From: Candidatus Yanofskybacteria bacterium RIFCSPHIGHO2_01_FULL_44_24
Lineage (GTDB): Bacteria > Patescibacteriota > Minisyncoccia > 2-02-FULL-40-12 > GWA2-44-9
Assembly: GCA_001794215.1 (NCBI GenBank)
Contig: MGJK01000012.1
Span: 80,818 to 144,817, forward strand
Reading direction: 5' to 3'
Length of the DNA: 64,000 nucleotides
The notes under the pieces were generated by a model. The model worked only from the letters and a program-made list of their open reading frames with translations, was not told the DNA's origin and did no database searches. Below are positions 3,949 to 39,161 of the stretch, in pieces (the first letter of the stretch is position 1; each line of letters opens with the position of its first letter). Both the position numbers and the translations under genes were made by a program.

Positions 3949-4605
3949 ATGGTTAATAAAGAAAAATTAGGCGAGCCGATTGGGGTTGGCGGGGAGAAAA
4001 AAGTATACCAAGACCCGAAAAACCCTGATCGAGTAGTGGGAATTTTTAGAGAGCATATCGAAGAAACGCCCAATCAGATTAAAGCTCGATTTTATCTTAC
4101 AAAAATCCTGCACCTCTTATTTCCCAAAAATATCCCCGACATGCATTGGGCCGGAAGTGAGCCTAATGCATATCAGGCAGATAGAAAAGAGCACGACGAA
4201 AGGCATGCCACATTACGAGATTATGTGTTGTCCGGGGAGGGCGATAAATATATAGGTATGTCCGTTGAGGTCAAGAAAGACTTAGAAAGAAAAGCGGACG
4301 ACGCTTTCCAGGAGCATATAAAAGATAAGGATGTAAGAAGTTTCGTAGATAGGTTGGATGAATTAGGGATCAGGTCAACCGATATGGCATCAGTTAACTT
4401 TTCGAAAGACCCCGGGGGTAACGTCTTATATCTCGATACTTTTTATGTCTGGAAAAGGAACATGTATGACAGGCTCCAATTATTTTGTGATTTCGATAAA
4501 TTAGAGAACGCATTTGCGCAGTTGCCAGAGGCCGATCGGGCGAAGGCCAAGAATTATTTATCACGATTGAAAAAACTTTATGAGGAAGAAAGTAATTCCA
4601 AATAA
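3949..4605 (+). CDS. Hypothetical protein
   Basis: 218-aa ORF with no recognisable motif. It sits tightly packed between secA and the epimerase gene. Confidence 0.4.
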   Translation: MVNKEKLGEPIGVGGEKKVYQDPKNPDRVVGIFREHIEETPNQIKARFYLTKILHLLFPKNIPDMHWAGSEPNAYQADRKEHDERHATLRDYVLSGEGDKYIGMSVEVKKDLERKADDAFQEHIKDKDVRSFVDRLDELGIRSTDMASVNFSKDPGGNVLYLDTFYVWKRNMYDRLQLFCDFDKLENAFAQLPEADRAKAKNYLSRLKKLYEEESNSK

Positions 4606-8053: not shown

Positions 8054-8680
8054 ATGAATTACAAAACCAGGCAGTTACTAAAAAGGGGCGGGTTCTTAGT
8101 GGGTTTTGGCCTGCTGATCTTCGTAATCTATTGGACAAGCCAGAGCCTGTCTAAGCTTCAAGATTCTACGTCAGGCGGCCTTATACCCAAGGAATCTGTG
8201 GCTACTTTGGTGGAGTACAGCGATTTTCAGTGTCCGGCATGCGGACTTTATTATCCTTTCGTGAAACAGCTTAAAGAAGAAATGGGTGATAAGTTGGCCG
8301 TAGTTTATAAGCACTTTCCTTTGCGGACAATACACAAAAATGCTGATTTGGCTGCCCGGGCTTCGGAAGCGGCCCGATTGCAGGGTAGGTTTTGGGAGAT
8401 GCACAATATGATTTTTGAAAAACAAAAAGAATGGTCTGACTCCGATCAGGTTCTTTCCCTTATGACTGCTTATGCCGTTTCTTTGAGGATTGATCAGGAC
8501 AGATTCTTGGCCGATATTAATTCCAATACGGCCAGAGACAGGATTGACAACGATTATCAGGAGGGGATGCGCTTGGGAGTCAGGGGTACTCCGACGTTCT
8601 TTCTGAACGGCAAAAAAATAATTAATCCGAGAAGCTATGATGAATTTAAATCAATCGTTGAACAATCAATCCGGCGGTAA
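8054..8680 (+). CDS. DsbA-like thiol:disulfide oxidoreductase (thioredoxin fold)
   Basis: N-terminal transmembrane helix. CPAC active-site motif in the context YSDFQCPACGLYYP. The C-terminal GVRGTPTFFLNG is a cis-Pro loop pattern. Confidence 0.8.
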   Translation: MNYKTRQLLKRGGFLVGFGLLIFVIYWTSQSLSKLQDSTSGGLIPKESVATLVEYSDFQCPACGLYYPFVKQLKEEMGDKLAVVYKHFPLRTIHKNADLAARASEAARLQGRFWEMHNMIFEKQKEWSDSDQVLSLMTAYAVSLRIDQDRFLADINSNTARDRIDNDYQEGMRLGVRGTPTFFLNGKKIINPRSYDEFKSIVEQSIRR

Positions 8681-9134
8681 GCTATGGCTTAGAGTTATTA
8701 CCATTGTCGCGCTGATCGGGGTGGCCGATACGGTTTATCTAACCGCAGATCGTTACTTCGGGACAGGGGTTCAGTGTTTTCTTTTGGAGGGATGCGAGAT
8801 CGTGCTGAAGAGTCCGTATTCCGAGATGTTCAGCATACCGCTATCTGTTTTCGGCCTCTTATTCTACGGTGCGATTTTTATCTTGGCCAATATAGCCGAT
8901 ATATACCGCCAGCGGATCCTTGTTCAGCTGTTATTCGGAGCCGGTGTAGTCGGATTTATTTTCTCACTTTACTTTCTTTATCTGCAATTGTTCATTATTA
9001 AGGCCCTATGTCCGTATTGCCTTGCGTCTCTTGCCTCGTCGACTGTTATTTTTGTCTCTGCTTTTGTCTTATGGAAGAGGGGCTTTGGCGGCGGATCGGC
9101 CGGCGTTCATAACTCATACCAGATAACACCATGA
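8637..9134 (+). CDS. Vitamin K epoxide reductase (VKOR) family membrane protein
   Basis: Multi-transmembrane protein with loop cysteines (CFLLEGC) and a CPYC motif in a transmembrane helix. It overlaps and follows the dsbA-like gene, as in bacterial DsbA-VKOR pairs. Confidence 0.65.
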   Translation: MMNLNQSLNNQSGGKLWLRVITIVALIGVADTVYLTADRYFGTGVQCFLLEGCEIVLKSPYSEMFSIPLSVFGLLFYGAIFILANIADIYRQRILVQLLFGAGVVGFIFSLYFLYLQLFIIKALCPYCLASLASSTVIFVSAFVLWKRGFGGGSAGVHNSYQITP

Positions 9135-9385
9135 ACATCGTCTATCGCATATTTAGAATTTCATTCTTCGTTTTCTTGGATGTAAGCGGTATTTTACTCG
9201 GGATATTTCTGATTATGCTGGGGTCGGCTATGATATTAGGCTTGGAGGTCGCAGGTTGGATAGGCTGGGTCGTGCTGATACTCGGAATTTGCGCTTTTTT
9301 GCTGCATGTCGGTCATTACTTCAGCTTAAGATATATGCGCTGGACCTTCGGAGAAGATTACTTTGTTCAAAAAATTAAGAAATAA
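9131..9385 (+). CDS. Small membrane protein, hypothetical
   Basis: 84 aa with two or three transmembrane helices. Confidence 0.35.
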   Translation: MNIVYRIFRISFFVFLDVSGILLGIFLIMLGSAMILGLEVAGWIGWVVLILGICAFLLHVGHYFSLRYMRWTFGEDYFVQKIKK

Positions 9386-9450
9386 AAATTAATTGTTCTG
9401 GGTCGAGGAACAGGCGAAGTTAAATAAAACATTATTAAAATAAAAAACAA

Positions 9451-9843
9451 ATGAATAACAAATTGTTGGAATGGGTTTTGAGAATTTCCATTGCCGGTGA
9501 ATTCATCGGCCATGGCGTTTTTGCCATTCAGGGCAAAAAGGACTGGATAGGTTGGTTTGCCAAGTTTGGAGTGGGGGATCCGGAGATGGCAAAAAATTTG
9601 CTTTTCTGGATCGGTATCACGGATTTAGCAGTTGCTTTATTGGTATTAGTTCGTCCGATCAGAGTTGCACTTTTGTGGGCCTTGGTCTGGGGATTCTGGA
9701 CGGCATTGTTGAGACCGCTTGTCGGAATGCCGATTTGGGATTTTATCGAAAGGTGGGCTAATTGGGGAGCGCCCTTAGCGCTGCTACTTTACTACGGCTG
9801 GCCGAGGAGCTTGAAGAGCTGGTTCAAGGTTCGTGGCGAGTAG
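9451..9843 (+). CDS. Membrane protein, hypothetical
   Basis: 130 aa and hydrophobic. Confidence 0.4.
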   Translation: MNNKLLEWVLRISIAGEFIGHGVFAIQGKKDWIGWFAKFGVGDPEMAKNLLFWIGITDLAVALLVLVRPIRVALLWALVWGFWTALLRPLVGMPIWDFIERWANWGAPLALLLYYGWPRSLKSWFKVRGE

Positions 9844-10357: not shown

Positions 10358-11119
10358 ATGTTCGAACTTAAAGAGAAGGTCGCGGTAGTGACCGGTGGTC
10401 GAAGAGGTATGGGCAGGGCTCATGCCGTGGCTTTGGCCGCTCAAGGCGCTCATGTAGTCGTAACTGATGTCGATTCATCAGCGTGTCAGCCGGTAGTCGA
10501 TGAGATACGGCTGTCCGGAAGCAGGGCATCCTGTTTCAAGATGGATGTGTCTGATAAGCGCGAAGTCGATCGGGTCTTTGACGAGGTAATTAAGGAATAC
10601 GGGAAGATAGATATACTTGTAAATAATGCCGGAATTTTTGCCTCTAAGCCGGCGCTGGATATCAGCGAAGATGAGTGGGAGAAAATGATTCATATCAATT
10701 TGCGGGGCCAGTTTTTGTGCGCCCAAAGAGCCGCGAAAGAAATGGCGAAAAATAAGTGGGGGAGGATAATTAATATTTCTTCGATTGCCTCCGGCGGGGT
10801 TGGTGTCGGTTTTGCCGGCGCGGCTCATTACACTGCTTCCAAGGGGGGCATAATCGGCATGACCGAGACTCTGGCGGTGGAGCTGGCTTCATTGGGAATT
10901 AATGTCAATGCAATTGCTCCTGGAGCGATTGATACTCCGATGATCGATGCCGCTAAAATACCAAAGGAAGCGCTCGATGCCATGCTTCAGTCCATCCCTC
11001 TAAGAAGGATCGGCCGGCCCGAAGAGGTTTCAGCGGCGGTTATTTTCTTGGCATCGGAGGAAGTTAGCTATATTACTGGTGCTACTTTGTATGTTGACGG
11101 AGGCTGGTTAGCGGCTTAA
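10358..11119 (+). CDS. SDR-family oxidoreductase (FabG-like 3-oxoacyl reductase fold)
   Basis: TGGRRGMGRAHA (TGxxxGxG), NNAG, and the catalytic S...YxxxK (YTASKGG). Confidence 0.9.
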   Translation: MFELKEKVAVVTGGRRGMGRAHAVALAAQGAHVVVTDVDSSACQPVVDEIRLSGSRASCFKMDVSDKREVDRVFDEVIKEYGKIDILVNNAGIFASKPALDISEDEWEKMIHINLRGQFLCAQRAAKEMAKNKWGRIINISSIASGGVGVGFAGAAHYTASKGGIIGMTETLAVELASLGINVNAIAPGAIDTPMIDAAKIPKEALDAMLQSIPLRRIGRPEEVSAAVIFLASEEVSYITGATLYVDGGWLAA

Positions 11120-19645: not shown

Positions 19646-21211
19646 ATGACGGGGCTTTTTATTTTTCAGGAAGTAAATTTCTCGGCGGCTTTAAAGCATC
19701 ATCTTCATCATCTTTCCAAGTGCAGAATTTTTATATACAATTGGCTTATGTCTAAACTTAAATTAACGGGTGACCATTTTTATAAATTTTTCCAGTGTCC
19801 TCATTGGATTTGGTACGATATCTACGGCGAAGCCAAAAAGAGGAGGGAAGCTCCGCCTCTGTTAGAGATGATTTATAAGGGCAAGGTTGCACAGGCTAAT
19901 CAAACTCTGGGCCAGCATAAAAAATTCGAAGAGGTTAAGCCGGAACTTTTGCGTGATTTGGACGAGGGTTTTTTGGCTACCTTAGAGCTTATGAAAAAGG
20001 GAAAAAATATATATCACGGAGTTTTGATGAGCGAAAATTGGGTCGGGATGCCGGATCTTCTTGAGGCAAGGCCCGGTAAGTCGGATCTTGGCGATTGGTA
20101 TTATGTTGTCTACGACGTTAAAAGCTCTCTCGATCTAAGCGATGAGTACAAGTTTCAGCTTATTTTTTACAGTTTGATACTTGAGCGTCTTCAGGGCGTG
20201 AGGCCGAAGGAGGCTTATGTCATAGATGCCGAAGGCACCGAAAGGGCGTTTGCGATTGATGATTATATCGATCAATTCCATCTGACTCGTCAGCAGATAG
20301 AGAAAATTCTTGACGGTGAAAAGCCCGCCCCATTTCTAAAGAGCGGCTGTAAAAGAACTCCTTGGTATTCTCTTTGTATTTCCGAGACTGAGGGCTGTGA
20401 CGACGTTTCGCTTATATACAAGATCAGCCAAGCCGATCAGAGGCGTCTTTATGAGGTGGGAGTCAAAACAGCTCACGATATGGCCGATGCCGATGTCAAC
20501 CAGCTTCAGGCTAAATTGGAAGACTGGCCTTTTGATAAAATTATCAGGTTCAGCAATCAGGCCAAGTGCCTGATAAGTCAGGAGCCCAAAATTTTAAGAA
20601 AGCCCAATTTTCCCGACGTAGCCCACGAAATTTATTTTGATATTGAGAGCGACCCCACTCGGGATATAGATTATTTGCTCGGTTTTGTTATAAAAAGTAA
20701 AACAAGCCCCGAGGAAGTTAAGTACGAGTATTTTTTTGCCAATGATAAAAGCGAAGAGCCGGAGATGTGGAGAAAGTTCTTAGATTTTTTGGCTGGCTTG
20801 GATAATTTCGTCATCTACCACTATGCGTTTTACGAAAGGCAGGTTTTCGATCGCTTAGCTCTTCGTTACGGTGCCCCCACTACATTAATAAATAAATTCA
20901 AAGATAATACGATCGACCTTCATCTCAAATTAGTTGATTCAGCCGTTCTGCCGCTGTACTTCTATGGTCTCAAAGATGTTGCCGGATACTTGGGGTATAA
21001 ATGGGATAATCCCGAGGCGGGAGGAGCGGAGTCTGTTGTCTGGTATAATGACTGGCTTGATAAAAAGGACCTGCCTGACCGGCAGGCAGGCGATGCGATC
21101 CTCAAGAAGATTTTAAAATACAACGAAGACGATGTCCGGGCCACCTTGCTGATTAAAGAATGGCTCTCTTCTCAAAAACCATCCAAGCATAAGGAGAGCT
21201 TAGACGAGTAG
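19646..21211 (+). CDS. TM0106-family RecB-like PD-(D/E)XK nuclease with a C-terminal RNase-H-like (exonuclease-like) domain
   Basis: N-terminal FFQCPHWIWYD Cys motif. VYDVKSSLDLSDEYKFQLIFYSLILE (D..K PD-(D/E)XK). C-terminal IYFDIESDP...DYLLGF. The likely start is the internal MSKLKLTGD. Confidence 0.65.
   Translation: MTGLFIFQEVNFSAALKHHLHHLSKCRIFIYNWLMSKLKLTGDHFYKFFQCPHWIWYDIYGEAKKRREAPPLLEMIYKGKVAQANQTLGQHKKFEEVKPELLRDLDEGFLATLELMKKGKNIYHGVLMSENWVGMPDLLEARPGKSDLGDWYYVVYDVKSSLDLSDEYKFQLIFYSLILERLQGVRPKEAYVIDAEGTERAFAIDDYIDQFHLTRQQIEKILDGEKPAPFLKSGCKRTPWYSLCISETEGCDDVSLIYKISQADQRRLYEVGVKTAHDMADADVNQLQAKLEDWPFDKIIRFSNQAKCLISQEPKILRKPNFPDVAHEIYFDIESDPTRDIDYLLGFVIKSKTSPEEVKYEYFFANDKSEEPEMWRKFLDFLAGLDNFVIYHYAFYERQVFDRLALRYGAPTTLINKFKDNTIDLHLKLVDSAVLPLYFYGLKDVAGYLGYKWDNPEAGGAESVVWYNDWLDKKDLPDRQAGDAILKKILKYNEDDVRATLLIKEWLSSQKPSKHKESLDE
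21070..21090. repeat. GC-rich near-palindrome cctgcctg(a)ccggcaggcagg, copy inside a coding region
   Basis: 21-nt in-frame copy encoding DLPDRQAG in the nuclease gene. 20-nt perfect-palindrome copies occur at 29631-29650 and 51709-51728. Confidence 0.8.
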
Positions 21212-23653: not shown

Positions 23654-24715
23654 ATGCCCAACAACAACGCAGGCGCTATCGCCAAAACGGTCGTCGGTTT
23701 AGTTAAGAACCTGTCTACTCGAAACAGGGATATAATATCTCGTCGTTTTGGATTGAAAACAGGCAGAAAGGAGACTCTTGAGTCTATAGGCAAAAGCTAC
23801 GGGATTACCCGGGAAAGAGTCCGGCAGATAGAGGAGTTTTCCATGAATCAGCTTGCCAAAACCGCTAACGTCAATCCGGATGTTGCCCGGTATGTCTCTG
23901 CGGCCGAAGGCATTCTTCGGGATAACGGCGGCGCAGCCAAAGAAAGAGATCTGTTTAAGGCTTTCAGCGGAAACGATAAAGACAGCGTTGCCAATGCTTC
24001 GCTGGTCTTTTTGCTGACCCTGAATAACGAACCCGTTCGTTTTCATGAAAATGATGATTTCCACTCTTTTTGGGCGCTTAATTCTAAATTCGTAGATTAT
24101 CTCAGAAATACTTCCGCGTCGTTAGCTAACGCTATGAACAAGACCAAGAAGATAGTTCCGGCCGATCAATTCAAAGACTTTTTAAGATCAAACCATGTTT
24201 CAGGTCCTGATGGAGACGAGGTTTCCGATGGTCATGTTCAGATGCTTCTCTCTGTGAGTAAGAGCGTCTCCAAGAACATTTTCAACGAAGTCGGTCTGTC
24301 GGATTGGTCCGATATCAGGCCCAAGGGCGTCAGAGACAAGGCTTATTTGGTTTTAAAAAAAGAAAAATCACCCAAGCATTTCACCGATATCGCCAAGCTT
24401 ATAAATGTCGCCACTTTCTCAAGCAAGAAAGCCAACATTCAGACCGTCCACAACGAGCTTATTAAAGACCAGAGATTTGTTCTGGTCGGCCGAGGCATGT
24501 ATGGGTTGTCGGAATGGGGATACCAGCCGGGGACGGTTAAGGACGTTTTGGTTAGTGTTCTGAAAAATTCTTCCCAGCCTTTGCCCAGGGCCCAGCTCGT
24601 TTCCAGGGTTATGGATGCCAGGATGGTCAAAGAAAATACAGTGCTCTTAAATCTTCAAGATTCCAAAGTTTTCCTTAAAAAAGAAGACGGCACCTACGCT
24701 TTGCGTAAAGCGTAA
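23654..24715 (+). CDS. Sigma-70 region-4-like HTH domain protein (N-terminal) with an uncharacterised C-terminal domain
   Basis: ISRRFGLKTGRKETLESIGKSYGITRERVRQIEEFSMNQL matches the region 4.2 HTH pattern. The remaining roughly 280 aa have no recognised motif. Confidence 0.45.
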   Translation: MPNNNAGAIAKTVVGLVKNLSTRNRDIISRRFGLKTGRKETLESIGKSYGITRERVRQIEEFSMNQLAKTANVNPDVARYVSAAEGILRDNGGAAKERDLFKAFSGNDKDSVANASLVFLLTLNNEPVRFHENDDFHSFWALNSKFVDYLRNTSASLANAMNKTKKIVPADQFKDFLRSNHVSGPDGDEVSDGHVQMLLSVSKSVSKNIFNEVGLSDWSDIRPKGVRDKAYLVLKKEKSPKHFTDIAKLINVATFSSKKANIQTVHNELIKDQRFVLVGRGMYGLSEWGYQPGTVKDVLVSVLKNSSQPLPRAQLVSRVMDARMVKENTVLLNLQDSKVFLKKEDGTYALRKA

Positions 24716-29918: not shown

Positions 29919-29991
29919 CCGCCCTTAGCTCAGTTGGTAGAGCAGCTCCCTTTTAAGGAGACGGTCGTAGGTTCGACTCCTACAGGGCGGA
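29919..29991 (+). tRNA. tRNA-Lys (anticodon UUU)
   Basis: Hand-folded: 7-bp acceptor stem ccgccct/agggcgg, D arm gctc-agttggta-gagc, anticodon loop cTTTTaa, T arm gtagg-ttcgact-cctac, discriminator A, and no encoded CCA. Very similar to the E. coli tRNA-Lys(UUU) backbone. Confidence 0.85.
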
Positions 29992-30595
29992 CAATATAAA
30001 AAGTCAGCATTTTTTGGAGTGTTGGCAATTCGGGAATATGCCTTTTTGTATTGTATTTCCTGAATCTCTTTGTTTTGGAACCAAACGTTCCAAAGTAGTG
30101 AATTTATCATTTGATACCTTTTTGAATCTTCGCCATTTAAAAAGTCATTTTTGGCGTTTTTAGCTTGTAAAAATACTTCTTTTGTCCGTTCCAAAGTAGA
30201 TAAGGCGGTTTCCGGATTATCCTTTTTAGTCCGGCTTAACTGATTTTCTAATTCAACCCTCTGATTATTGAGTTCCCTTATCTTATCGTCATATAACTCA
30301 ATTCTAAGGCTTCCAGAGGCCATAGCATCAGCCAGGCGGGATTCTCTTTCGTCTATCAGTTTCAATTCTTTTTGAATACCGGAAATGATAGTTTCAGACC
30401 TATCACTTGCCCCTATCTTCTGTTTGGCCGCCTCATACATGATTTCAATGGCCTCATCATCAAAAGCCAGATCGCCAAGCTTATCGGCAATCATCTTTGT
30501 AATAATTTCTTCCCGCATATATGCCTTGCCCTGTTCGCAAGAACCCTTTCCATTTGTGCAGTAATAATACCTATAACCCTTCTGCCACAGAGTGC
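29992..30595 (-). pseudogene. C-terminal fragment of a large serine recombinase (zinc-ribbon remnant plus coiled-coil region); N-terminal catalytic domain absent
   Basis: The minus-strand frame upstream of the track ORF start reads STLWQKGYRYYYCTNGKGSCEQGKAY-MREEIITKMIADKL... This is the YYxC...C half of the recombinase zinc beta-ribbon, followed by about 180 aa of coiled-coil. An in-frame stop lies just upstream, so there is no resolvase domain. The track ORF 29925-30518 runs antisense through the tRNA, so its last roughly 20 codons are artefactual. Confidence 0.45.
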
Positions 30596-30660: not shown

Positions 30661-31194
30661 ATGTTCACGGAAGATACGCCTAAACATAGCGACCCATCAG
30701 TAGAGCAATTGCTCGTCGATTTCAAAAAACTCAGAAAGATCATTAATGCCGTGAGATCCGGCTCGGTAACAAAGGCCCAGGCAATGGAGTACGAAGTCTC
30801 GGTCAATAAATTATTAAATCATGCCGGGACAGTAGATAGGGTATGCAAAGAAAGAGTCGAGCTATTAGACGGTGCCGACAAGGCCGTAAAAAAATTGGAA
30901 CAATTTGCAGAGAAGCGATTTCCGGCAGATGGAGAGTTCGGGTACCTTATGGTGGTCGAGCTGGACGAATCAATGCCTGGTGGCGAAAGAATATTCATCG
31001 GCGGGGGCAAGAGAAAGCCTGGAGAGGTCGGCGAGCCTTACGAGCCCGGGGTTTATGTGTATTGGGATGTGTATCTCTACGGTTATGCCGACGGCGGTCC
31101 GCACGACAGGCGGATCAATTCTTTGAGGGAAATCAAAGTTACAAATGAACAGTTAAGGAAATTTGTGGAGGCCGCAGAATCTTTGACGCGGTAG
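30661..31194 (+). CDS. Hypothetical protein (island cargo)
   Basis: 177 aa with no motif. Followed by the terminator at 31264-31296. Confidence 0.4.
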   Translation: MFTEDTPKHSDPSVEQLLVDFKKLRKIINAVRSGSVTKAQAMEYEVSVNKLLNHAGTVDRVCKERVELLDGADKAVKKLEQFAEKRFPADGEFGYLMVVELDESMPGGERIFIGGGKRKPGEVGEPYEPGVYVYWDVYLYGYADGGPHDRRINSLREIKVTNEQLRKFVEAAESLTR

Positions 31195-31263
31195 AGTTCT
31201 GAGCTATTCCCGGAGGAGAATCATAAGATTGTATCCAGCATTTTTTCTGATGGCTGAAAAGAC

Positions 31264-31296
31264 GCCGACTAATAAGTCGGCTTTTATTTTTTTTAA
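31264..31296 (+). terminator. Rho-independent terminator
   Basis: gccgactaataagtcggc hairpin followed by a T-run of 8 or more. Confidence 0.65.
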
Positions 31297-31308
31297 ATTC
31301 ATGGTAGC

Positions 31309-31596
31309 TTGTTAAGACAATTTAGTTTTTTAAAAAGGAGAGTCATGAAGATTCCGTATACCCGTATCGAAGCAGGCGAAACAGATATTCCAACCCACCA
31401 AATCGTTAAGCGGATCAGAGATGAGTACTTAGCCAAACTTGGCGGGGAGTTTGTAAGAGAGGTAGGCGGTAAGTACATGTTAATGGAGGAAACACGCACA
31501 TCTCATCGCTTTGAATTTGACGTGAGGGAACTGACCGAAGAAGAAGTAGCAAATTTTCAGGTTATTAATAGGCTCATTGTTTTCTTCATGAAATGA
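31309..31596 (+). CDS. Hypothetical protein (island cargo)
   Basis: Likely start at the internal MKIPYTRIEAG, preceded by a strong aaaaggagag RBS. Followed by the terminator gccggcagttagccggc+ttttt at about 31615-31637. Confidence 0.4.
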   Translation: MLRQFSFLKRRVMKIPYTRIEAGETDIPTHQIVKRIRDEYLAKLGGEFVREVGGKYMLMEETRTSHRFEFDVRELTEEEVANFQVINRLIVFFMK

Positions 31597-31614
31597 CCCT
31601 GACAACAGATTCGA

Positions 31615-31637
31615 GCCGGCAGTTAGCCGGCTTTTTA
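31615..31637 (+). terminator. Rho-independent terminator
   Basis: gccggcagttagccggc hairpin followed by ttttt. Confidence 0.6.
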
Positions 31638-31747
31638 TGAGAATATTTACGTGCAGCTTACTGCGCGTTCAAGTTTAAGTTTAAGTTGACAATATATCGT
31701 GAGGATGATATCCTATTTAAAAGTTCGTTTCACAATAAGGAATAAAA

Positions 31748-32122
31748 ATGTCCGGAAATCGCAAGACCCCCATTTACGTGACGGTAGGCAATTTTTGGAA
31801 AGAGGTCGAAGAGGCCGGACACAGGGTCGGAATGCCTCCGGAATTAATCAGCTGTCTCCGGGTTCTTATAGGATCGCACATCCATTCTCAAATGGGTCCT
31901 CGGGCGTCTCCTCATCTGATACGGCTGGCCAAAGAGTATGTTCTTGGCGGAGTTGTTATATCCGATTTTGTGAGAGAGGAAGAGCGTGTTCTTGAGGTGA
32001 TGGTTTTTATACCGAAGTTTAATCCTGATCCGGAAAAAGTCGGGCATCCGTTTTTCAAGCTCGTACCTACTTATTCAAACGGAGTGCTTCGGCGCCTTCA
32101 AGATATTTTGCCCGAAGATTAG
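31748..32122 (+). CDS. Hypothetical protein (island cargo)
   Basis: 124 aa. Preceded by an aaggaataaaaATG RBS. Followed by the terminator aaccgac...gtcggtt+tttt at about 32126-32156. Confidence 0.4.
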   Translation: MSGNRKTPIYVTVGNFWKEVEEAGHRVGMPPELISCLRVLIGSHIHSQMGPRASPHLIRLAKEYVLGGVVISDFVREEERVLEVMVFIPKFNPDPEKVGHPFFKLVPTYSNGVLRRLQDILPED

Positions 32123-32234
32123 CTTAACCGACCGAGATCAGAGTTAGTCGGTTTTTGATTGGAAAATACTTTACAAACTTTGTTGGAAGTGATACCTTGA
32201 CCCTGCCTTTTTAAGCAATCAAAACGAGGAGCCG

Positions 32235-32474
32235 ATGAGGATTTACTGGGACGCCAAGAGCCGAGGAACCAAAGCCGAGATCGTTCAGGATATGGAAAAT
32301 GATGCCGCCCGGCTGTTGGCGGAATCTGAGCCGGAATCGCACATTAGAGTAGGAGTTGAAAGGGTGTTCATTTATCCTTCCAGTTACGGCGTTAGCGGGT
32401 ACTCTTTGACCCTTGAAGATTTAGAAAGACTTGCTCAGGCGCTTAGGGCAAACAGCACAGACAGTTTTGCTTAA
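32235..32474 (+). CDS. Hypothetical small protein (island cargo)
   Basis: 79 aa. Followed by the terminator ccccacagaacgggg+ttttt at about 32475-32496. Confidence 0.35.
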   Translation: MRIYWDAKSRGTKAEIVQDMENDAARLLAESEPESHIRVGVERVFIYPSSYGVSGYSLTLEDLERLAQALRANSTDSFA

Positions 32475-32544
32475 CCCCACAGAACGGGGTTTTTGTTTAG
32501 GCATGCTCTAACCAAAAAGCGGGCAATGCCCGCCGAAACAACAG

Positions 32545-32994
32545 CTACCTTTTTCGAGGCTTCGAGAAGCAGATTCTTGTCGAAGCTTTTTTATTGGAAT
32601 TGACGTGAGGCGCAAATTCCGCGGCCGTATAGGTATCGACGTTAACGATTACGTGGCCGCGAGTCTCGTCTGAAACCAACGCGACAGCTCTGATCAGGTG
32701 CTCATCTCCAGAGATGGGTCGAAGAAAATGCGTAGTTAGGGTCTGAGCCGGAGTATGGAACTCTTCTTCCGAAACGGGGATGGTGCTCATCGCGGCATAG
32801 ACTCCGGCGAAGTCTGCGATTACGTCAATGACGCCTCCTTGGACGATTCGCTTGCCGGCAATAAGAAATTCTGGCCGGATCAGGGCGGTTAAGACCGCAT
32901 ATCCTTTTCCGATCTTTTCAAGCTTTATGTCCATAAAGATTACCAGGGGCTCCGTATCGAACCTTTGTCTCAGCTGATCAATCCGCTCGTTCAT
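32545..32994 (-). CDS. PaaI/4HBT-like hotdog-fold thioesterase
   Basis: 149 aa. Central GKRIVQGGVIDVIADFAGVYAA resembles the PaaI-type thioesterase helix. Followed on the minus strand by a gcgggcattgcccgc+tttttt terminator. Confidence 0.5.
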   Translation of the reverse strand: MNERIDQLRQRFDTEPLVIFMDIKLEKIGKGYAVLTALIRPEFLIAGKRIVQGGVIDVIADFAGVYAAMSTIPVSEEEFHTPAQTLTTHFLRPISGDEHLIRAVALVSDETRGHVIVNVDTYTAAEFAPHVNSNKKASTRICFSKPRKR

Positions 32995-33015
32995 GGACTT
33001 TCTCCTTTTTCGGCT

Positions 33016-33378
33016 TCAGCCTATGAGATCGTTGACCCGTAAGCTGATTTTATGTTCAACGGTGATTCCGCCGCAGTTAAGGAGCAAAACCCTTCTGAGG
33101 GAGGATTCTTTCGGGTCGGAGACTGAGATGCTGACTTCGTATCGAGGCTCGGGATAAAGTTTGGCGTAGGCATTTCTCAGTTCTTGGGCGAAGCCGTCTA
33201 CAGTTCCTCCGCGATGGGCGACGAGCTCCGTTTCGCTGGTTCTTCTCAAGAAATTACGGGAGCTGTACCGGACTTCAACCAGAATGGGTTTGTCGTTCAT
33301 TGTTTTCTCGGTTGTGTGAAAGAGCAAAGATAAATTACTATAACCATATCCGTCTGTCAACCCTTCAGTTGACACCAT
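33016..33378 (-). CDS. Hypothetical protein
   Basis: 120 aa. Likely start at the internal MNDKPILVEV. Confidence 0.3.
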   Translation of the reverse strand: MVSTEGLTDGYGYSNLSLLFHTTEKTMNDKPILVEVRYSSRNFLRRTSETELVAHRGGTVDGFAQELRNAYAKLYPEPRYEVSISVSDPKESSLRRVLLLNCGGITVEHKISLRVNDLIG

Positions 33379-33437
33379 GATAACTTTTATCTATAATATG
33401 CGGTAGTTTCATTTACATCTTTAGAATAGGAAAACGA

Positions 33438-33986
33438 ATGGATCAGACAGGTTTGGCTCTCAGTAACGACTTAGTCGGTCTGCTGGATAGTCTTAAGAAC
33501 GAGGCTCTCAAAGTGATAGAAGTGCCCAAGTTTCGTATACCGTTTTGGCCAAAAGGCCTTATGTGCATCTCGGATCTTGGAAAGAGAGGGTACCGCGTTC
33601 CTTCCGAGGATTCAAACGGCTTGCTCTCCTGGAAAAAAGGCAAGCACAAGATCTCCTTTGTCGTAGGAGTAGACGGCGAGATAAGATTCGAGTTCCGCGG
33701 GATGTTTAAACAATGGAGAAAATTCCCCGTCTTTTCTTCGGTGCAGGTTAGTGACGGTTACCGCGGATATTATGACTCCCCGGTTTACCAGGCTTCTTCC
33801 GACCACGATAGTAGTAATATCTCACGGTTGGGAGCGTTAGAGCTGTTTGATCAATTCAAGGTGGAAATTCTTTCTCTTGCGCTTGAGACAATCCGAACTT
33901 CTGAACATAAAGAAGTGGCCGAATCGGTCAAGAAAGCTTTCGAACCCTTTGTGCCGTTTGTTGTGGCGGATATGCTGTTGAAGTGA
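33438..33986 (+). CDS. Paralog 1 of a novel ~180-aa protein family, motifs EVPKFRIPFWPKG ... LFDQFKVEIL ... VKKAFEPFVPFVVADML
   Basis: Shares N-terminal, central and C-terminal blocks with the ORFs at 37075-37602 and 37599-38147. No transmembrane segment and no known domain. Confidence 0.5.
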   Translation: MDQTGLALSNDLVGLLDSLKNEALKVIEVPKFRIPFWPKGLMCISDLGKRGYRVPSEDSNGLLSWKKGKHKISFVVGVDGEIRFEFRGMFKQWRKFPVFSSVQVSDGYRGYYDSPVYQASSDHDSSNISRLGALELFDQFKVEILSLALETIRTSEHKEVAESVKKAFEPFVPFVVADMLLK

Positions 33987-33993
33987 GAATCAG

Positions 33994-34596
33994 ATGATCG
34001 GCGTTCTTACCCTTGATAATTTAAGAAGTTACGCTCGTTGGGGCAAATTAGGGAAGATAGATTTTTTTCAGCATAATTTGAGCCGTCGCGCATACCCCAG
34101 TCTGTCGGATTTACACAAGCTGATTGTTCAAATGGCGGATCAGTATGGTTTAAGAGAGGAAAATGTTTTAGCCGTTGTTGCCATCGGTTCGGCTATTCAT
34201 CCCTCGAAATTCAAGAACAGCTATAGTATAAGGCGGAGGTTCTTCCTGTTCGGGCCTCTACGGGCTAAGCATAGAATCGTCCAGATAGCCCCTAATGACT
34301 TTGATTTTTTGGTGTTAACGGACCGTGATTTAGAGGCGAAAGGGGCCTGGATGAGGAAAGGTAAAATCCACCTGATAAACCGGAGTATCGGACAGATTCT
34401 TAGGTGTCGCGAGAATGGAGATACGGTGAGTATCAATGCTCTGCGCCGGGGGGTTATGATTTTTCGGACTTTTCTTTTTGAAGATAATGATTGGGCCAAT
34501 CTCGGCATCCGGGCAGGCGTTAAACGGGATGCATCGAGACCTCGGGCTTACTATTATAAGGGTCCTCACAAATATCTGGAGATCAGCGTAGGTTGA
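33994..34596 (+). CDS. Hypothetical protein with a weak nucleotidyltransferase-like GS ... DxD pattern
   Basis: VVAIGSAIHPSKF ... NDFDFLVLTDRD. The GS-to-DxD spacing is longer than in canonical minimal NTases, so the assignment is tentative. Immediately downstream of paralog 1. Followed by the terminator gaggagttcagaacgaactcctc+tttatttt. Confidence 0.3.
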   Translation: MIGVLTLDNLRSYARWGKLGKIDFFQHNLSRRAYPSLSDLHKLIVQMADQYGLREENVLAVVAIGSAIHPSKFKNSYSIRRRFFLFGPLRAKHRIVQIAPNDFDFLVLTDRDLEAKGAWMRKGKIHLINRSIGQILRCRENGDTVSINALRRGVMIFRTFLFEDNDWANLGIRAGVKRDASRPRAYYYKGPHKYLEISVG

Positions 34597-34783
34597 GAAG
34601 ATCGAGGAGTTCAGAACGAACTCCTCTTTATTTTACTCCGTAATACGGCAAGATTGGCAAATCAGCCGTTCTGCCATAGCCTACACTCCATTCCCGGTAT
34701 CATCCATAAAGCTCTTGACTTTATTAGTATTTTAATTTAAAATATGGCCACAAGTTCATTGTCAATTCAAAGAGAAAACAAAC

Positions 34784-35773
34784 ATGAGACCGAAAGAAGT
34801 CAGCGCGTTTTTGAAGTCTCTCACGCACTATTCTAAGGCCCCCGCGGTCTTTATCTGGGGTCCTCCCGGAGTAGGGAAGTCGAGAGTATGCGAGCAGGTG
34901 GCCCGGGAGGAGAACATGGGCTTTGTCGATTTGAGATTGGCTTTGATGGATCCGACCGATCTTCGGGGCATTCCTGTTCCGGAAAACGGTAAGGCCCAAT
35001 GGTTGGCCCCCTCGGCATTACCCACGGAAGGCAGGTGGATCATCCTCCTGGATGAATTTAACCTTGCTCCTCCGCTTGTGCAGTCGTCCGCTTATCAGCT
35101 TGTGCTTGACCGTAAGCTTGGGGAATACACACTACCCAAGGAATGTCTTGTGATCGCCGCCGGGAACAAAACCGAACATGGCGCCAATACATTCAAGATG
35201 GCGATGCCTCTCCGCAACCGATTCGTCCACATTGATTTCGAAACCCATATTGACGACTGGAGAGAATGGGCGATCCGAAACGAAATAGAATCGGAAGTCG
35301 TAGAATTCATCAGTTTCCGGCCGGACCTTCTTTTTCAGTTTGATCCGCGAAGGCAAGAGAATGCTTTTCCTACGCCTCGAAGCTGGGAATTTACTTCGCA
35401 AATCATAAAGAGCAGAAATGGCTTGGGTGAAGAAATTGTCCAGAAAGTAATTGAAGGGACTGTCGGTGCGGGAGCGGCAACGGAGTTGAAAAGCTACCGT
35501 CAAATGAAGGCAAATCTGCCGTCCATCGACAGTATTCTTAAGGGTGAAGACTATGCTCCCGAACAGGCCGATCTCGCCTGTGCCGTTGCCACCGCTCTTG
35601 TTATCAGGGCCAATGCGGATCAATTCGACAGGGTACTGCGCTATTCCGAAAAGCTTCAGGCTGAAATCACCGTACTGATCGGCAAGCTTCTTGCCGTCAA
35701 AGACAAGCAATCTCTGATGAAGTGCTCCTACTGGGCTACCTGGTCTAAGAAGCATTACGGCCTTATAGGATAA
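34784..35773 (+). CDS. MoxR-family AAA+ ATPase (AAA_5 / CbbQ-NorQ-GvpN-like)
   Basis: Walker A GPPGVGKS, Walker B ILLDEFN, sensor-1 AAGN, and RNRF. About 330 aa, the MoxR size. Confidence 0.85.
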   Translation: MRPKEVSAFLKSLTHYSKAPAVFIWGPPGVGKSRVCEQVAREENMGFVDLRLALMDPTDLRGIPVPENGKAQWLAPSALPTEGRWIILLDEFNLAPPLVQSSAYQLVLDRKLGEYTLPKECLVIAAGNKTEHGANTFKMAMPLRNRFVHIDFETHIDDWREWAIRNEIESEVVEFISFRPDLLFQFDPRRQENAFPTPRSWEFTSQIIKSRNGLGEEIVQKVIEGTVGAGAATELKSYRQMKANLPSIDSILKGEDYAPEQADLACAVATALVIRANADQFDRVLRYSEKLQAEITVLIGKLLAVKDKQSLMKCSYWATWSKKHYGLIG

Positions 35774-35782
35774 GGGCTGATC

Positions 35783-37078
35783 ATGAGTGGAAATAAGGCG
35801 GTCAGAGAAAGGATAATCAGGGAAAGGGTTCAGCTCCTGCTTCATCGTCCCTTTTTCGGGTATCTCACTCTAAGTCTTGATCTGAAAGAAGAGCTTGGAA
35901 TACCTACTATGGCGACAGATGGAACTCGCCTTTACTATAATCCGGCTTTTGTGGATGGGCTTGATCCTAAAGTTCTTCAGATGATTCTTGCCCATGAAAC
36001 GCTTCATTGCGCCTTGGGCCATCTCTGGAGGCTTGAAAAACGTAATCGTGAAAAGTGGAATTATGCCACCGACTATGCGATCAATTTGATGCTGAAAAAA
36101 GAAGGATTCACGGTGCCGGCCAATTGTTTATGCGACGATAAATTTGACGGTATGTCGGCTGAAGAGATATATCACAGACTGCCTGATCAAAAACCCAAGG
36201 GGTCTTTAGTCAGCTCTCACGATAAATGGCCGGGTAAGAATAAGTGTAAGGATAAAGAGAACAAGAAGGCGTCTCAGACTCCGCAAGATAAAAGCGGTGA
36301 AGGGGGAGATAAAAAGCCTGAGAATCAGGGCCAGCAGAGTAAAGACGATTCTAAAGAGGATGGGAGCGGGGGCGACAATAAAGACAGGATTGAAGGCGAT
36401 CAGCCTCAGTCCGCCCCGCCCCAAATTTTAAGTGGCGACGATCAAGAGGAGCTTGTGAAAGAGTGGCAAGATAAACTGATCCGCGCCGCTAATGCGGCAA
36501 GAATGCAGGGTAAATTGCCCGGCAGGATGGGTCAGCTTATCCAGGATGTTCTTGAGCCTAAGCTCGACTGGAAGGTAATCCTGAAGGATTTAGTCACTTC
36601 TTTGGTCCGAAACGATTTTCGTTTATTTCCGGCCTCAAAGAAGCATCTTTGGCGTAATATCTATCTGCCTTCCCTTCACGGTGAGTTGATAGAATTAGCC
36701 GTAGGCATAGATACTTCCGGCTCAGTTTCTGATGAGCAATTCCAGGAGCTGATTGCCGAAGTGCGGGGCATTGCCGAGCAATTTGAGAATTTCACCCTTC
36801 ACTTGTTTTTCTGCGATACAGAGATCCACGACCGGATGACCATCTCATCTAACGACGTATGGCCGGATAAATTTACCAAAAATGGAGGCGGTACGAGTTT
36901 TGTTCCGGTGATAGAGCTGATCGACAAAGAGCTTCCGCATATTGCCGGACTGGTCTACCTTACTGACGGGGATGGAGCGTATCCTAAGAATCCGCCGGAC
37001 TATCCGGTGATCTGGGTGCTTAATAAAGATAAGGTCATGCCCTGGGGCGAGAGCATTAAGATGGAGGAGGCCCGATGA
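35783..37078 (+). CDS. VWA-domain protein with an N-terminal zincin-like HExxH domain (DUF2201-like) and an acidic/K-rich linker
   Basis: AHETLHCALGH contains an HExxH motif in the N-terminal domain. The C-terminal GIDTSGSVSDEQ is a MIDAS DxSxS motif in a VWA-like fold. Start is 10 nt after the AAA gene stop, the classical MoxR-VWA pairing. Confidence 0.8.
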   Translation: MSGNKAVRERIIRERVQLLLHRPFFGYLTLSLDLKEELGIPTMATDGTRLYYNPAFVDGLDPKVLQMILAHETLHCALGHLWRLEKRNREKWNYATDYAINLMLKKEGFTVPANCLCDDKFDGMSAEEIYHRLPDQKPKGSLVSSHDKWPGKNKCKDKENKKASQTPQDKSGEGGDKKPENQGQQSKDDSKEDGSGGDNKDRIEGDQPQSAPPQILSGDDQEELVKEWQDKLIRAANAARMQGKLPGRMGQLIQDVLEPKLDWKVILKDLVTSLVRNDFRLFPASKKHLWRNIYLPSLHGELIELAVGIDTSGSVSDEQFQELIAEVRGIAEQFENFTLHLFFCDTEIHDRMTISSNDVWPDKFTKNGGGTSFVPVIELIDKELPHIAGLVYLTDGDGAYPKNPPDYPVIWVLNKDKVMPWGESIKMEEAR

Positions 37079-37602
37079 CACCGACTCAAAATCTTTCCGA
37101 ACTCAAAACATACCTTGATCAGTTTAAAGAGGAGATGGCTCAAATTGATATCCGGAATCTTCAGGAAATTCCCAAATTTCGTATCCCTAATTGGCCGGAA
37201 GAAGCAGGGTCTGTGGCGGTTGACTTCTGGTTCAGAGAGCTAATGTATCCTTGCCGGGGCGAGGCATCTTCCATGCTGAACGTTCGAAGAAAAAGGGTGC
37301 GTCATATGAGGGTTGAAATATATCATGGACTTATCTACATAACCAAGATGCATTTGAATTCAAGCAACCAGGCTTTTCAATCCGACAATCTTACCGGGCT
37401 TAATCGCACCAATTGTTTCATTATTTTCCATCAGCTTATCGACCCGATTTGCAGGGCAATAATCAAAAAGCTTAAGAAGAGATATCGTAAGTTCAAGGAT
37501 GAAGCGGAGCAATATAACAGAGTCTGTGACGCCGTCAAAAAATCCTTCGAACCTCTGATCCCTTTCATTGTGGCGGATATTTTGGAAGGGGAGGAAGGAT
37601 GA
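37075..37602 (+). CDS. Paralog 2 of the novel ~180-aa family (EIPKFRIPNWPEE ... VKKSFEPLIPFIVADIL)
   Basis: Start overlaps the VWA gene stop (ATGA), suggesting translational coupling. Conserved terminal motifs are retained, the middle is divergent. Confidence 0.5.
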   Translation: MTPTQNLSELKTYLDQFKEEMAQIDIRNLQEIPKFRIPNWPEEAGSVAVDFWFRELMYPCRGEASSMLNVRRKRVRHMRVEIYHGLIYITKMHLNSSNQAFQSDNLTGLNRTNCFIIFHQLIDPICRAIIKKLKKRYRKFKDEAEQYNRVCDAVKKSFEPLIPFIVADILEGEEG

Positions 37603-38147
37603 CAAGTTCCATTTCGATAGTCCCGATGAGTAAGGCTAACATGGGCGAGGAATTTTCCGGGATTGAGTTTCAGGATATCAATGTTCCAAAGTTCAAAATT
37701 CCAAACTGGCCCAAAGGGGTAGGCATATCCCTTAAGTTAAGCAAGAGGCCGTATCATATTCCCGTGGAGTCTGACGGCAAGTACCTATGGTATAGGAATA
37801 AGCATAGGCTGTTCGTTGAGATAACGGGCGAGGGCTTCATCAGGTTTCAGTTCTTGCGCGCCGTCCTTGGATTAAGGCCGGCCCAATTTTGCGGTAGCTA
37901 CGCATCCAACGGCTATACGGTAAGTTGGTTAGATGTCGGCCATTACTGGGTTGATTCCGGTGCGGACGACTTACCGAGAAGGCTACCCGCCCTGATGTTG
38001 TTTGACCAGTTCAAGGTCAACATTCTTCTGGAGCTGGTTTCGAAGCTGAAGAACGATTCTGCGATACATAATCAGGTTGTTGAAGAAGTCAAGAAAGCCT
38101 TCGAACCCTTTGTGCCGTTTGTTGTTATGGATCAGTTACTGTCATAG
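37599..38147 (+). CDS. Paralog 3 of the novel ~180-aa family (NVPKFKIPNWPKG ... LFDQFKVNIL ... VKKAFEPFVPFVVMDQL)
   Basis: Overlaps paralog 2 by 4 nt. The paralog closest to paralog 1 across the full length. Confidence 0.5.
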   Translation: MTSSISIVPMSKANMGEEFSGIEFQDINVPKFKIPNWPKGVGISLKLSKRPYHIPVESDGKYLWYRNKHRLFVEITGEGFIRFQFLRAVLGLRPAQFCGSYASNGYTVSWLDVGHYWVDSGADDLPRRLPALMLFDQFKVNILLELVSKLKNDSAIHNQVVEEVKKAFEPFVPFVVMDQLLS

Positions 38148-38318
38148 GACGAGAGCAAGATAATTTCTTGCTCTTTTTGTTTAGCTAAAAGCCCAAAAGA
38201 AGGATAAAATATCAGAGTATTTATCATTTTTGTCAAATTTTTTGTTCCTTGTGGAGGTTCTGCGGGAGTGGTATTTTTAATGTATACTGGTTAACAAAAT
38301 CAAATCAGCCTGCTTACT

Positions 38319-39161
38319 ATGAGCAACTCCAACAAAAGATTGAAATACGCCAAACACCATGCCGAGACAGTCTATGTGGGCGAATATATAGATCTCAAGA
38401 AAGTTCAGGAGGGCATCAGGCACTATGTTTATCTTAATCGCGATCATCCGCTGGTCATCCGGGTTTTAAAAGAGCAATATGTGGTTTTGACCAAATTCGG
38501 AGCTGTTACATTTTGGAACGTTTCCCAGCGTTTAAGGAAGGAATTTTTAAAAGAAATCATACCCTTTGTCAAGAATAAAAAGACCAACTATCCTTACGAC
38601 GAAGAAACCAAGGTTTTTATAGGCGGCGAAGTTGAAAAAATAACTTTCGATACCGTCTATCTCACCAAACTCGAACCGAGCGAGATCAAGATCATCTCCT
38701 ACGTCCTATCCCAGTCAGTCGCATTGGAGCGCTACGAGGATGAGATAGAAGCTAATCTTTCCGAGATCGGAGTTATCGTGGAAAATCTGAAATCGACCGG
38801 ACGAGCCATGCTTAACGAACGAGGGCTCTTGAAGCAAATCGGCAATGTTCTGTCGGTAAAGCAAACGGCGGTTGCGCATTTGTCTCTGTTTGATAAGCCG
38901 GAAGAGGTTTGGGAGTCTCCCGGACTGGAGAGTCTCTACAACAGAATGAATTTCGAATATGAGCTACAAGATAGATTCGACATTCTTGATGAAAAAATTA
39001 AGTATCTTTCCGATATTTCCCAGATGCTTATGAATTTTTTGGCTGAAAAACGAAACGCTTTTTTGGAGACCATTATTATACTTTTATTTGTTGTTGATTT
39101 AGGCCTCTGGTTCTTGCCTCCTTTTCCGGAAGTATTGACCTACATTCGCTCGCTGTTTTAA
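38319..39161 (+). CDS. DUF155/RMD1-like protein with a C-terminal transmembrane helix
   Basis: 280 aa. Overall architecture is a soluble domain with ETIIILLFVVDLGLWFL at the C-terminus, resembling DUF155. Assignment made by pattern only. Confidence 0.4.
   Translation: MSNSNKRLKYAKHHAETVYVGEYIDLKKVQEGIRHYVYLNRDHPLVIRVLKEQYVVLTKFGAVTFWNVSQRLRKEFLKEIIPFVKNKKTNYPYDEETKVFIGGEVEKITFDTVYLTKLEPSEIKIISYVLSQSVALERYEDEIEANLSEIGVIVENLKSTGRAMLNERGLLKQIGNVLSVKQTAVAHLSLFDKPEEVWESPGLESLYNRMNFEYELQDRFDILDEKIKYLSDISQMLMNFLAEKRNAFLETIIILLFVVDLGLWFLPPFPEVLTYIRSLF

Follow-up and report, generated by a model that had tools for sequence, protein, structure and literature searches.

Organisation of the cassette

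A 64,000-nt stretch of the genome of Candidatus Yanofskybacteria bacterium RIFCSPHIGHO2_01_FULL_44_24 (contig MGJK01000012.1, positions 80,818–144,817; hereafter the window, numbered from its first nucleotide) contains a cassette of six genes, all on the plus strand, encoding a MoxR-clade AAA+ ATPase, a predicted zincin metallopeptidase with a von Willebrand factor type A (vWA) domain, three paralogous small proteins and a basic protein. The first gene, par1 (33438–33986), encodes a 182-aa paralog of what we call the 'U-type', and is followed by orfX (33994–34596), encoding a basic protein of 200 aa with an isoelectric point of 10.3. Next come the gene for the 329-aa ATPase (AAA, 34784–35773), assigned to Pfam family AAA_5, and the gene for the 431-aa vWA protein (VWA, 35783–37078), with the Pfam domains of a zincin metallopeptidase and a vWA domain with a metal ion-dependent adhesion site (MIDAS). 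The last two genes, par2 (37075–37602) and par3 (37599–38147), encode an 'M-type' paralog of 175 aa and a 'D-type' paralog of 182 aa, respectively. The listing of open reading frames (ORFs) has all six where a preliminary description of this region, made from the sequence alone, had placed them. Of the tight junctions described there, the two 4-nt ATGA overlaps, of par2 with the VWA stop codon and of par3 with the par2 stop codon, were confirmed, while the spacer between AAA and VWA is 9 nt and not 10 nt.

A promoter-like site with the sequence TTGACA-17-TATAAT (33369–33397, plus strand) matches the consensus at 12/12 positions and precedes par1, and an intrinsic-terminator-like hairpin with a 9-bp stem containing 5 G-C pairs, followed by the T-run TTTATTTT, lies on the same strand at 34604–34626, which agrees with the terminator noted earlier 3′ of orfX. 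A second promoter-like site (TTGACT-17-TAAAAT, 34715–34743, plus strand; 10/12 consensus positions) precedes the ATPase gene, and a second hairpin, with a 10-bp stem followed by TTTGTTT, closes the plus-strand gene series at 38151–38175. Because these promoter-like sites and hairpins flank par1-orfX and AAA-VWA-par2-par3, the cassette is predicted to consist of these two transcription units, with the promoter and terminator calls being sigma-70-like consensus matches of predicted function.

The six proteins are identical to database entries KKT80766–KKT80771 and to OGN entries from groundwater metagenome-assembled genomes of Candidatus Yanofskybacteria, which belong to the Parcubacteria within the Candidate Phyla Radiation (CPR). 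In these entries the paralogs and the orfX product are named only 'hypothetical' or 'uncharacterized', and the ATPase and vWA protein carry generic domain names.

The ATPase and the zincin-vWA protein

The ATPase scored 30.5 bits against Pfam AAA_5, above the cut-off of 22, and 24.7 bits against AAA_3, the MoxR family proper, which is below the cut-off of 27. Since the first profile passes its cut-off and the second does not, we classify the protein by sequence as MoxR-clade in the broad sense, but not as MoxR proper, so that its earlier naming as a MoxR-type AAA+ ATPase holds in that sense. Its closest PDB entry by sequence is midasin, and it matches phrog_1297 of the PHROGs collection with E = 7e-95. 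In the vWA protein, the Pfam domains DUF2201_N ('putative metallopeptidase', E = 9.2e-48) and DUF2201 ('VWA-like', E = 1.7e-24) were detected, in agreement with the N-terminal HExxH domain and C-terminal MIDAS proposed previously, and the protein matches phrog_1314 with E = 7e-103. The vWA domain occupies residues 305–428 of 431, and is thus the C-terminal end of the protein.

Comparison with six orthologues, which are 56–82% (ATPase) and 51–67% (vWA protein) identical to the window proteins, showed that the previously noted motifs GPPGVGKS, LLDEFN, RNRF, AHETLH and DTSGS are all located in invariant columns. Invariant residues of the ATPase include Walker A K32/S33, Walker B D90/E91, sensor-1 N128 and R144/R146, while those of the vWA protein include H71/E72/H75 of the HExxH motif, H80 and D97 in the zincin part, and D310/S312/S314, T371 and D395 of the MIDAS. 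The vWA protein is therefore predicted to be a zincin metallopeptidase combined with a vWA domain with an intact MIDAS. Its profile matched the minigluzincins MJ1213/selecase and projannalysin weakly (E = 0.02). The two domains are separated by a low-complexity linker of about 70 residues (approximately residues 150–220), rich in K, D, E, G, Q and S, the length of which differs among orthologues, and which is nearly gone in loci L004 and L020.

A candidate new protein family next to the ATPase and vWA genes

Judged from sequence comparisons, the relatedness of par1, par2 and par3 is far above chance. The par1 product is 40% identical to that of par3 and 26% to that of par2, and matches the hidden Markov model of the family with E = 2e-45; each of the three matches independent family members from other contigs (E = 1e-7 to 1e-17), and par3 has homologues of 40–43% identity in the same position in loci L001, L002, L003, L008 and L102. 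Three blocks had been reported as common to the three paralogs, and this is the case for [EN][VI]PKF[RK]IPxWP and VKK[AS]FEP[FL][VI]PF[VI]VxD, while LFDQFKV.IL occurs only in par1 and par3, with par2 having IFHQLIDPIC. At the DNA level, the regions encoding the C-terminal motif (33905–33971, 37512–37578 and 38066–38132) are 81% identical between par1 and par3 over 67 nt, which could reflect either very strong constraint or local gene conversion.

No match to par1, par2 or par3 was found in Pfam, NCBIfam, PADLOC or PHROGs, even at E = 10, so that profile searches identified no known domain, housekeeping or otherwise, in proteins that had been described as novel, and the paralog profile gave noise only against PDB sequences. 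Only 7 relatives were recovered from 5.8 billion proteins by a word-indexed search, and a HMMER profile search of 1.84 billion representatives, of clusters built at 50% identity, returned 88 clusters with E < 1e-3, 64 of which had E < 1e-10. Members of the family found by HMMER are nearly all 150–240 aa in length, with no Pfam domains fused to the longer matches; a 370-aa match (P0093) was discarded as a coiled-coil false positive. Pattern scans of the GTDB species representatives and of IMG/VR detected no family member, the 54-sequence family alignment being too diverse for deriving search patterns, and BFVD held no structural match. The paralogs would thus form a new, unannotated family of approximately 160–220 aa, so far found only in this lineage of Parcubacteria.

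Only P30, W37, P38, G79, R128, Q137 and P173 are nearly invariant among 54 members, and these residues look structural rather than catalytic. The AlphaFold model of par3, based on an 8-sequence alignment, had a predicted local distance difference test (pLDDT) score of 71, and that of par2, based on a 70-sequence alignment, reached 90.4. In the par2 model, a helix (residues 7–23) precedes the PKFRIPNWP loop (33–41), followed by four antiparallel strands spanning residues 47–102, a helix (108–120) and a very long helix (122–173) bearing the C-terminal motif. Family members accordingly have an N-terminal helix with a near-invariant PxFxIPNWP loop after it, then an antiparallel sheet of four strands, and finally a long C-terminal helix that ends in KKAFEPFIPFVVAD; two conserved terminal motifs thus enclose a variable middle. 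The fold is likely to be new; a weak resemblance was seen to TULIP-type lipid-binding folds (CETP, BPI, JHBP/Takeout and Der f 7). The distant members P0070, P0073, P0092 and P0088 (L106, L107) have a transmembrane-like two-helix hairpin in the variable loop and lack the FEPFIPF tail, and in L107 a gene for a CbiM-like membrane protein is located downstream of the family member.

Linkage, copy number and evolution across loci

A survey of co-occurrence bore out the proposed association with MoxR-vWA genes, as a member of the paralog family adjoins the AAA_5 gene, the DUF2201 gene or both in 13/13 informative loci, counting the window. Informative loci are those with enough flanking sequence, and the contigs of L018, L103, L106 and L107 (1.1–2.2 kb) were too short to judge; the neighbour in L018 is an ornithine/arginine decarboxylase-like gene. 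Among the linked loci, identity to the window ATPase is as low as 56%, and the flanking genes are different in each locus. Gene order in all loci is MoxR, vWA and paralog(s), and no locus has more than one additional paralog upstream. The arrangement AAA-VWA-M-D of the window is repeated in L001, L002 and L014, and also in L008, where orfX and a U-type paralog precede it on the opposite strand, while shorter contigs (L009–13) encode the same D-type protein as L008. L004/5 has AAA-VWA-M with the upstream paralog on the opposite strand, and in L019 the paralog is divergent from AAA. AAA-VWA is followed by one paralog in L020/21 and by three tandem paralogs in L108, and VWA is followed by one paralog in L003 and by a paralog in L104 and L105. 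Finally, L102 has orfX and a U-type paralog on the opposite strand, AAA-VWA-D and then a recombinase gene. In L012, on one metagenome contig, the M-type paralog (1210–1707) is split into two ORFs (1210–1416 and 1420–1707), and is either a frameshift pseudogene or the result of an assembly error.

The number of paralogs per locus ranges from 1 to 3, and the triplicated third component highlighted in the preliminary description is hence not the defining state of the system. In a neighbour-joining tree, the family is separated into an ancient 'M' subtype, which is always the first gene after VWA, and a 'D/U' group found in the last or upstream positions. par1 groups with the upstream paralog of L008, and L102 has an orthologous paralog upstream as well. 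In both of these loci the paralog stands beside an orthologue of orfX, and par1-orfX is predicted to be a separable accessory module, found in three loci.

The two orthologues of the orfX product are 35–38% identical to it, and the three proteins share the motif series AxGSA, PNDxDFL, a later D, and ALxxGxxIF, the GS...DxD pattern of the preliminary description being conserved among them. The AxGSA and PNDxDFL motifs are approximately 35 residues apart, a spacing that exceeds that of minimal nucleotidyltransferases. No Pfam profile matched orfX, even at E = 10, and sequence and profile searches of the PDB gave nothing beyond a spurious sum over TALE repeats. The protein may be a divergent nucleotidyltransferase of the Pol-beta type, the core of which would contain an unusually long insert.

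Rates of nonsynonymous substitution (dN) between L002 and L008 were 0.034 for AAA, 0.077 for VWA, 0.245 for the D-type and 0.716 for the M-type paralog, and the paralogs thus diverge 3–20 times faster than the ATPase. Synonymous divergence (dS) is saturated (≥ 0.8), which makes dN/dS ratios rough, and no comparison gave a dN/dS near or above 1, consistent with purifying selection on all of the genes.

The MoxR/zincin-vWA pair in phages and other bacteria

The system had been presented as undescribed, and for the ATPase/zincin-vWA pair this does not apply, as the pair is already known as a type from Pfam DUF2201, PHROGs 1297/1314 and the literature (PMC7824862). With tblastn, the vWA protein was found in 767 phage records. 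N4-like, rV5-like and jumbo phages are among them, as are Bacillus phage G and cyanophage S-TIM5, and in the phage records checked the ATPase gene was located directly upstream of the vWA gene. A MoxR protein and a vWA protein with an N-terminal metallopeptidase were described in group 2.2 jumbo phages by Iyer et al. 2021, who suggested that the pair acts in the assembly and processing of virions (PMC7824862), while literature searches found no experimental characterisation of the pair. Phage vWA genes often carry misleading names: phrog_1314 is labelled 'HNH endonuclease', as are many individual genes, and single phage records name the DUF2201 zincin-vWA protein 'anti-sigma factor', 'dCTP deaminase' or 'membrane protein'. 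Records with such names include OZ195746.1 (L016 3923–5047), NC_028659.1 and NC_011041.1. These names appear to be propagated annotation errors, because they are contradicted by the Pfam domains.

Outside phages, we sampled 80 GTDB loci with an ATPase 31–44% identical to that of the window, from Campylobacterota, Proteobacteria, Desulfobacterota, Firmicutes, Cyanobacteria and Actinobacteria. A DUF2201 protein was encoded in 75/80, mostly directly downstream of the ATPase gene, and none of the 80 contained a member of the paralog family (hmmsearch --max, E ≤ 1). Clustering of the neighbouring genes in these 80 loci showed no widespread third partner gene beside AAA-DUF2201, the largest cluster being an upstream helicase-like protein of about 1150 aa (11 loci). 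The phage and bacterial pairs thus resemble the cassette in having the ATPase gene followed at tight spacing by the zincin-vWA gene, with intact HExxH and MIDAS motifs, but differ from it in lacking the 1–3 flanking paralogs that the window-type loci always have. As 0/80 outside loci hold the paralog family, the family is best read as a lineage-specific addition to a widespread two-gene module.

Genomic context of the cassette

Upstream of the cassette are genes for SecD/SecF, a sigma-r4/HARE-HTH protein, a HerA/TrwB-like ATPase and an HD protein, and a tRNA-Lys gene (29919–29992). The recombinase remnant reported previously is present at 29925–30518 on the minus strand, where it overlaps the tRNA-Lys gene and encodes the C-terminal portion of a large serine recombinase (phrog_95 integrase, E = 2e-7). 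Between this fragment and the cassette are approximately 3 kb of small orphan ORFs (30661–33378) that lack database matches, and together the recombinase fragment and orphan ORFs look like a decayed integrated element. A prophage was rejected as an explanation for the window, as no PHROG match below E = 0.01 was obtained for the other neighbouring ORFs tested, namely six small ones upstream of the cassette and the DUF155 gene downstream of it. The GIY-YIG neighbour of the preliminary description was not recovered, with no such motif in the six reading frames of the window and no Pfam match in the neighbouring ORFs. Further upstream, preceding SecD/SecF, a 521-aa protein (19646–21211) combines a Cas4/PD-(D/E)XK-like N-terminus (E = 1.8e-4) with RNase_H_2 (E = 4.8e-29). 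The sigma-r4/HARE-HTH protein (353 aa, 23654–24715) has the unusual architecture of an N-terminal sigma-70 region 4 with HARE-HTH.

The cassette is followed by genes for DUF155, Ddl and AspRS. The first of these, at 38319–39161 and 3′ of the second terminator, encodes a DUF155/RMND1-like protein with a C-terminal hydrophobic segment. In L004 a 213-aa multi-pass membrane protein is encoded 13 nt past the last paralog (4463–5104), and in L020 a short MscS-like protein directly after it (10555–11076); the occurrence of membrane-protein genes after the last paralog in several loci may be a coincidence.

In L102, the last paralog is followed after 16 nt by a gene for a full-length large serine recombinase (8162–9580; Resolvase, Recombinase and Zn_ribbon_recom domains) and then by DnaX, and this cassette and recombinase may constitute a compact integrative element of approximately 5.5 kb. 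The recombinase remnant in the window is not similar to the L102 recombinase, and the two loci were not taken as the same element. An insertion sequence (IS) element is present near the cassette in L001, and tRNA genes are found approximately 0.4–1.6 kb from the last paralog in L009, L105 and L020. Mobility of the cassette is suggested by these sequences.

Comparison with known MoxR-vWA systems

Ternary MoxR-vWA systems with a variable third component were predicted to be conflict systems by Kaur, Burroughs, Iyer and Aravind 2020 (PMC7159879), and the cassette had been likened to ternary systems of this kind. The VMAP systems have the strict order VMAP-MoxR-vWA, variable effector domains C-terminal on the vWA protein, and a tripartite VMAP protein with a VMAP-C domain of about 7 strands and 6–7 helices (PMC7159879). 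VMAP and iSTAND systems resemble the cassette in joining a MoxR ATPase and a vWA protein to a third protein that is specific to the system, evolves fast, has no recognisable enzymatic residues and occurs in paralogous copies. However, the gene order of the cassette is MoxR, vWA and paralogs, its vWA protein has an N-terminal zincin and no C-terminal effector, and its third component is a single small domain of four strands plus helices, which does not match the description of VMAP-C. The third component of iSTAND is an inactive STAND NTPase, which the paralogs are not: no P-loop or STAND profile matched them even at E = 10, and the model lacks an NTPase fold. Furthermore, VMAP and iSTAND are enriched in multicellular bacteria, whereas the cassette is found in CPR genomes. 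Since gene order, architecture of the vWA protein and nature of the third component all differ, the cassette is neither a VMAP nor an iSTAND system.

The classical MoxR-vWA chaperone pairs include CbbQ-CbbO, NorQ-NorD, CoxD-CoxE and RavA-ViaA, along with GvpN and the ATV proteins p618/p892. These combine an AAA_5/MoxR ring with a MIDAS adaptor that binds a dedicated client encoded nearby, a logic that the cassette would share. However, no peptidase domain is present on their adaptors, and what they act on is an already known enzyme or structure, while in the cassette a zincin is present on the adaptor and the candidate clients or adaptors belong to a new family. The adaptor-plus-motor logic of MoxR-vWA pairs has been described (PMC7159879, PMC7824862).

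Proposed function

In established MoxR-vWA pairs, remodelling is done by the ATPase ring, while the MIDAS domain contacts the dedicated client at an acidic residue, and by analogy the paralogs are most likely hetero-oligomeric adaptors or dedicated clients, and not enzymes. The reading that we prefer, with confidence evenly divided for and against it, is that Candidatus Yanofskybacteria and related Parcubacteria carry, as an accessory cassette, a ternary variant of the MoxR-vWA chaperone/protease module that is specific to their lineage. Synthesis of the paralogs would be at a fixed ratio to that of the vWA protein, and the paralogs would form a hetero-oligomer that docks onto the MIDAS site of the vWA domain, the ATPase ring or both via the two conserved motifs, which include a conserved D/E near the paralog C-terminus. 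The ATPase ring would then supply ATP-driven remodelling and the fused zincin cleavage, and recognition would be determined by the sheet and loop that diverge fast between the two conserved motifs, so that the whole would function as a split ATP-dependent metalloprotease or remodeller.

Several observations weigh against this interpretation. The linkage was observed in one clade of related genomes, and is partly inherited synteny rather than independent association, and no AAA or VWA gene was present on the short contigs of L018 and of the members with a transmembrane hairpin. The fast divergence of the paralogs may stem from relaxed constraint and not from an arms race, because dS is saturated and no dN/dS ratio came near or above 1. 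In L020, a minimal AAA-VWA-paralog operon is located among housekeeping genes (Ank/TsaD/LeuRS on one side, MscS/ClpB/FtsZ/FtsA on the other) on a 398-kb contig. The GC content of the cassette is only slightly raised (47.2% versus 44.8 ± 1.3%) and its tetranucleotide usage is ordinary, and it was therefore rejected as a compositional island; a search for att sites found neither another copy of the tRNA-Lys 3′ end nor direct repeats at the flanks. Finally, none of the defence models of PADLOC-DB v2 and NCBIfam matched the vWA protein, the paralogs or orfX, and those matching the ATPase were weak and generic (DolB, E = 7e-5; IetA, E = 0.007).

The role of the cassette is probably accessory, and a part in conflict is a plausible hypothesis, because of the fast evolution of the paralogs and the recombinases, IS element and tRNAs found close to the loci. 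Either defence or a mobile-element function inherited from the phage-borne pair is considered somewhat less likely than not. In its most direct form, which we consider possible but tentative, the cassette would provide defence against phages or mobile elements: the paralogs would sense an invader protein, the MoxR ring would switch the vWA protein, and the zincin effector would cleave an essential protein of host or invader in an abortive-infection-like response. A comparable logic is known for zincin effectors such as Lit. The divergence of the paralogs at 3–20 times the rate of the ATPase, their variation in copy number and arrangement, and flanks that differ in each locus with recombinase, IS or tRNA genes close by are as expected for such a system, and agree with the conflict role predicted for ternary MoxR-vWA systems with a variable third component (PMC7159879). 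Against this, the vWA protein and paralogs lack matches to defence models, the similarity of the ATPase to DolB is weak, no recognised defence genes adjoin the cassette and there was no sign of positive selection; the frequent occurrence of this ATPase/vWA pair in lytic phages also speaks against a function that is defensive by nature. The 'typical' defence context ascribed to the region in the preliminary description was an overstatement, given these missing PADLOC matches, the missing GIY-YIG gene and the position of the L020 operon between TsaD/LeuRS and ClpB/FtsZ/FtsA. A more specific proposal, to which we give somewhat less credence, is that of an unrecognised, CPR-confined class of ternary MoxR-vWA conflict systems, in which a hetero-oligomer of new fold would be the invader-sensing or specificity subunit and the zincin an ATP-gated effector.

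The cassette could alternatively be a lineage-specific housekeeping chaperone, with the paralogs as structural subunits of a CPR-specific assembly that the MoxR-vWA pair folds, assembles or proteolytically matures, although this is rather unlikely. Such a role would parallel those of GvpN for gas vesicles, CbbQO for Rubisco and ATV p618 for the virus tail. The surroundings of the minimal L020 operon, with LeuRS, TsaD, ClpB, FtsZ and FtsA, would suit a housekeeping function, as would the purifying selection on all genes and the structural rather than catalytic appearance of the conserved paralog residues; the overlapping stop and start codons suggest translational coupling, and the long C-terminal helix, together with the fixed subtypes, points to a defined hetero-oligomer. 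The chaperone parallels themselves are in part drawn from PMC7824862. Against a housekeeping role stand the rarity of the family, with its 88 clusters among 1.84 billion representatives and no member in the pattern scan of GTDB species representatives, its variation in copy number, and flanks that are never conserved and have mobile-element genes close by.

Less probable again is that the cassette is cargo serving a phage-derived or integrative element, in counter-defence, takeover of host proteins or particle assembly, with the paralogs as element-specific substrates. The very strong PHROG matches of the ATPase and vWA protein, the phage records of the latter and the virion-assembly role proposed for the jumbo-phage pair (PMC7824862) point in this direction, as do the recombinase gene abutting the L102 cassette and the integrase remnant in the window. 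Yet no other phage-like gene was found near the cassette in the window or the examined loci, no paralog was detected in the IMG/VR pattern scan or by structure in BFVD, and phage pairs occur without these paralogs. The defence, housekeeping and element-cargo explanations share one mechanistic core. It is very improbable that the paralogs are lipid- or membrane-handling modules of lipid-auxotrophic CPR cells, as could be proposed from the weak TULIP-like resemblance, the members with a transmembrane hairpin and the membrane-protein genes downstream in L004 and L020.

Of the candidate undescribed conflict or signalling system originally proposed, a new paralog family linked to MoxR-vWA genes thus stands, while the pair itself was already known and the conflict role is hypothetical; the novelty lies in the third component and the CPR setting, not in the MoxR/zincin-vWA pair. 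A clade that locks this pair to a dedicated, co-translated partner family offers a handle on what the pair binds, and perhaps cleaves. The cassette also adds a multi-gene system with a likely new fold to CPR genomes, which are poor in recognised accessory and immune systems. If the conflict hypothesis is true, the range of ternary MoxR-vWA systems would reach past multicellular bacteria, and an adaptor bearing a peptidase would be among their components.

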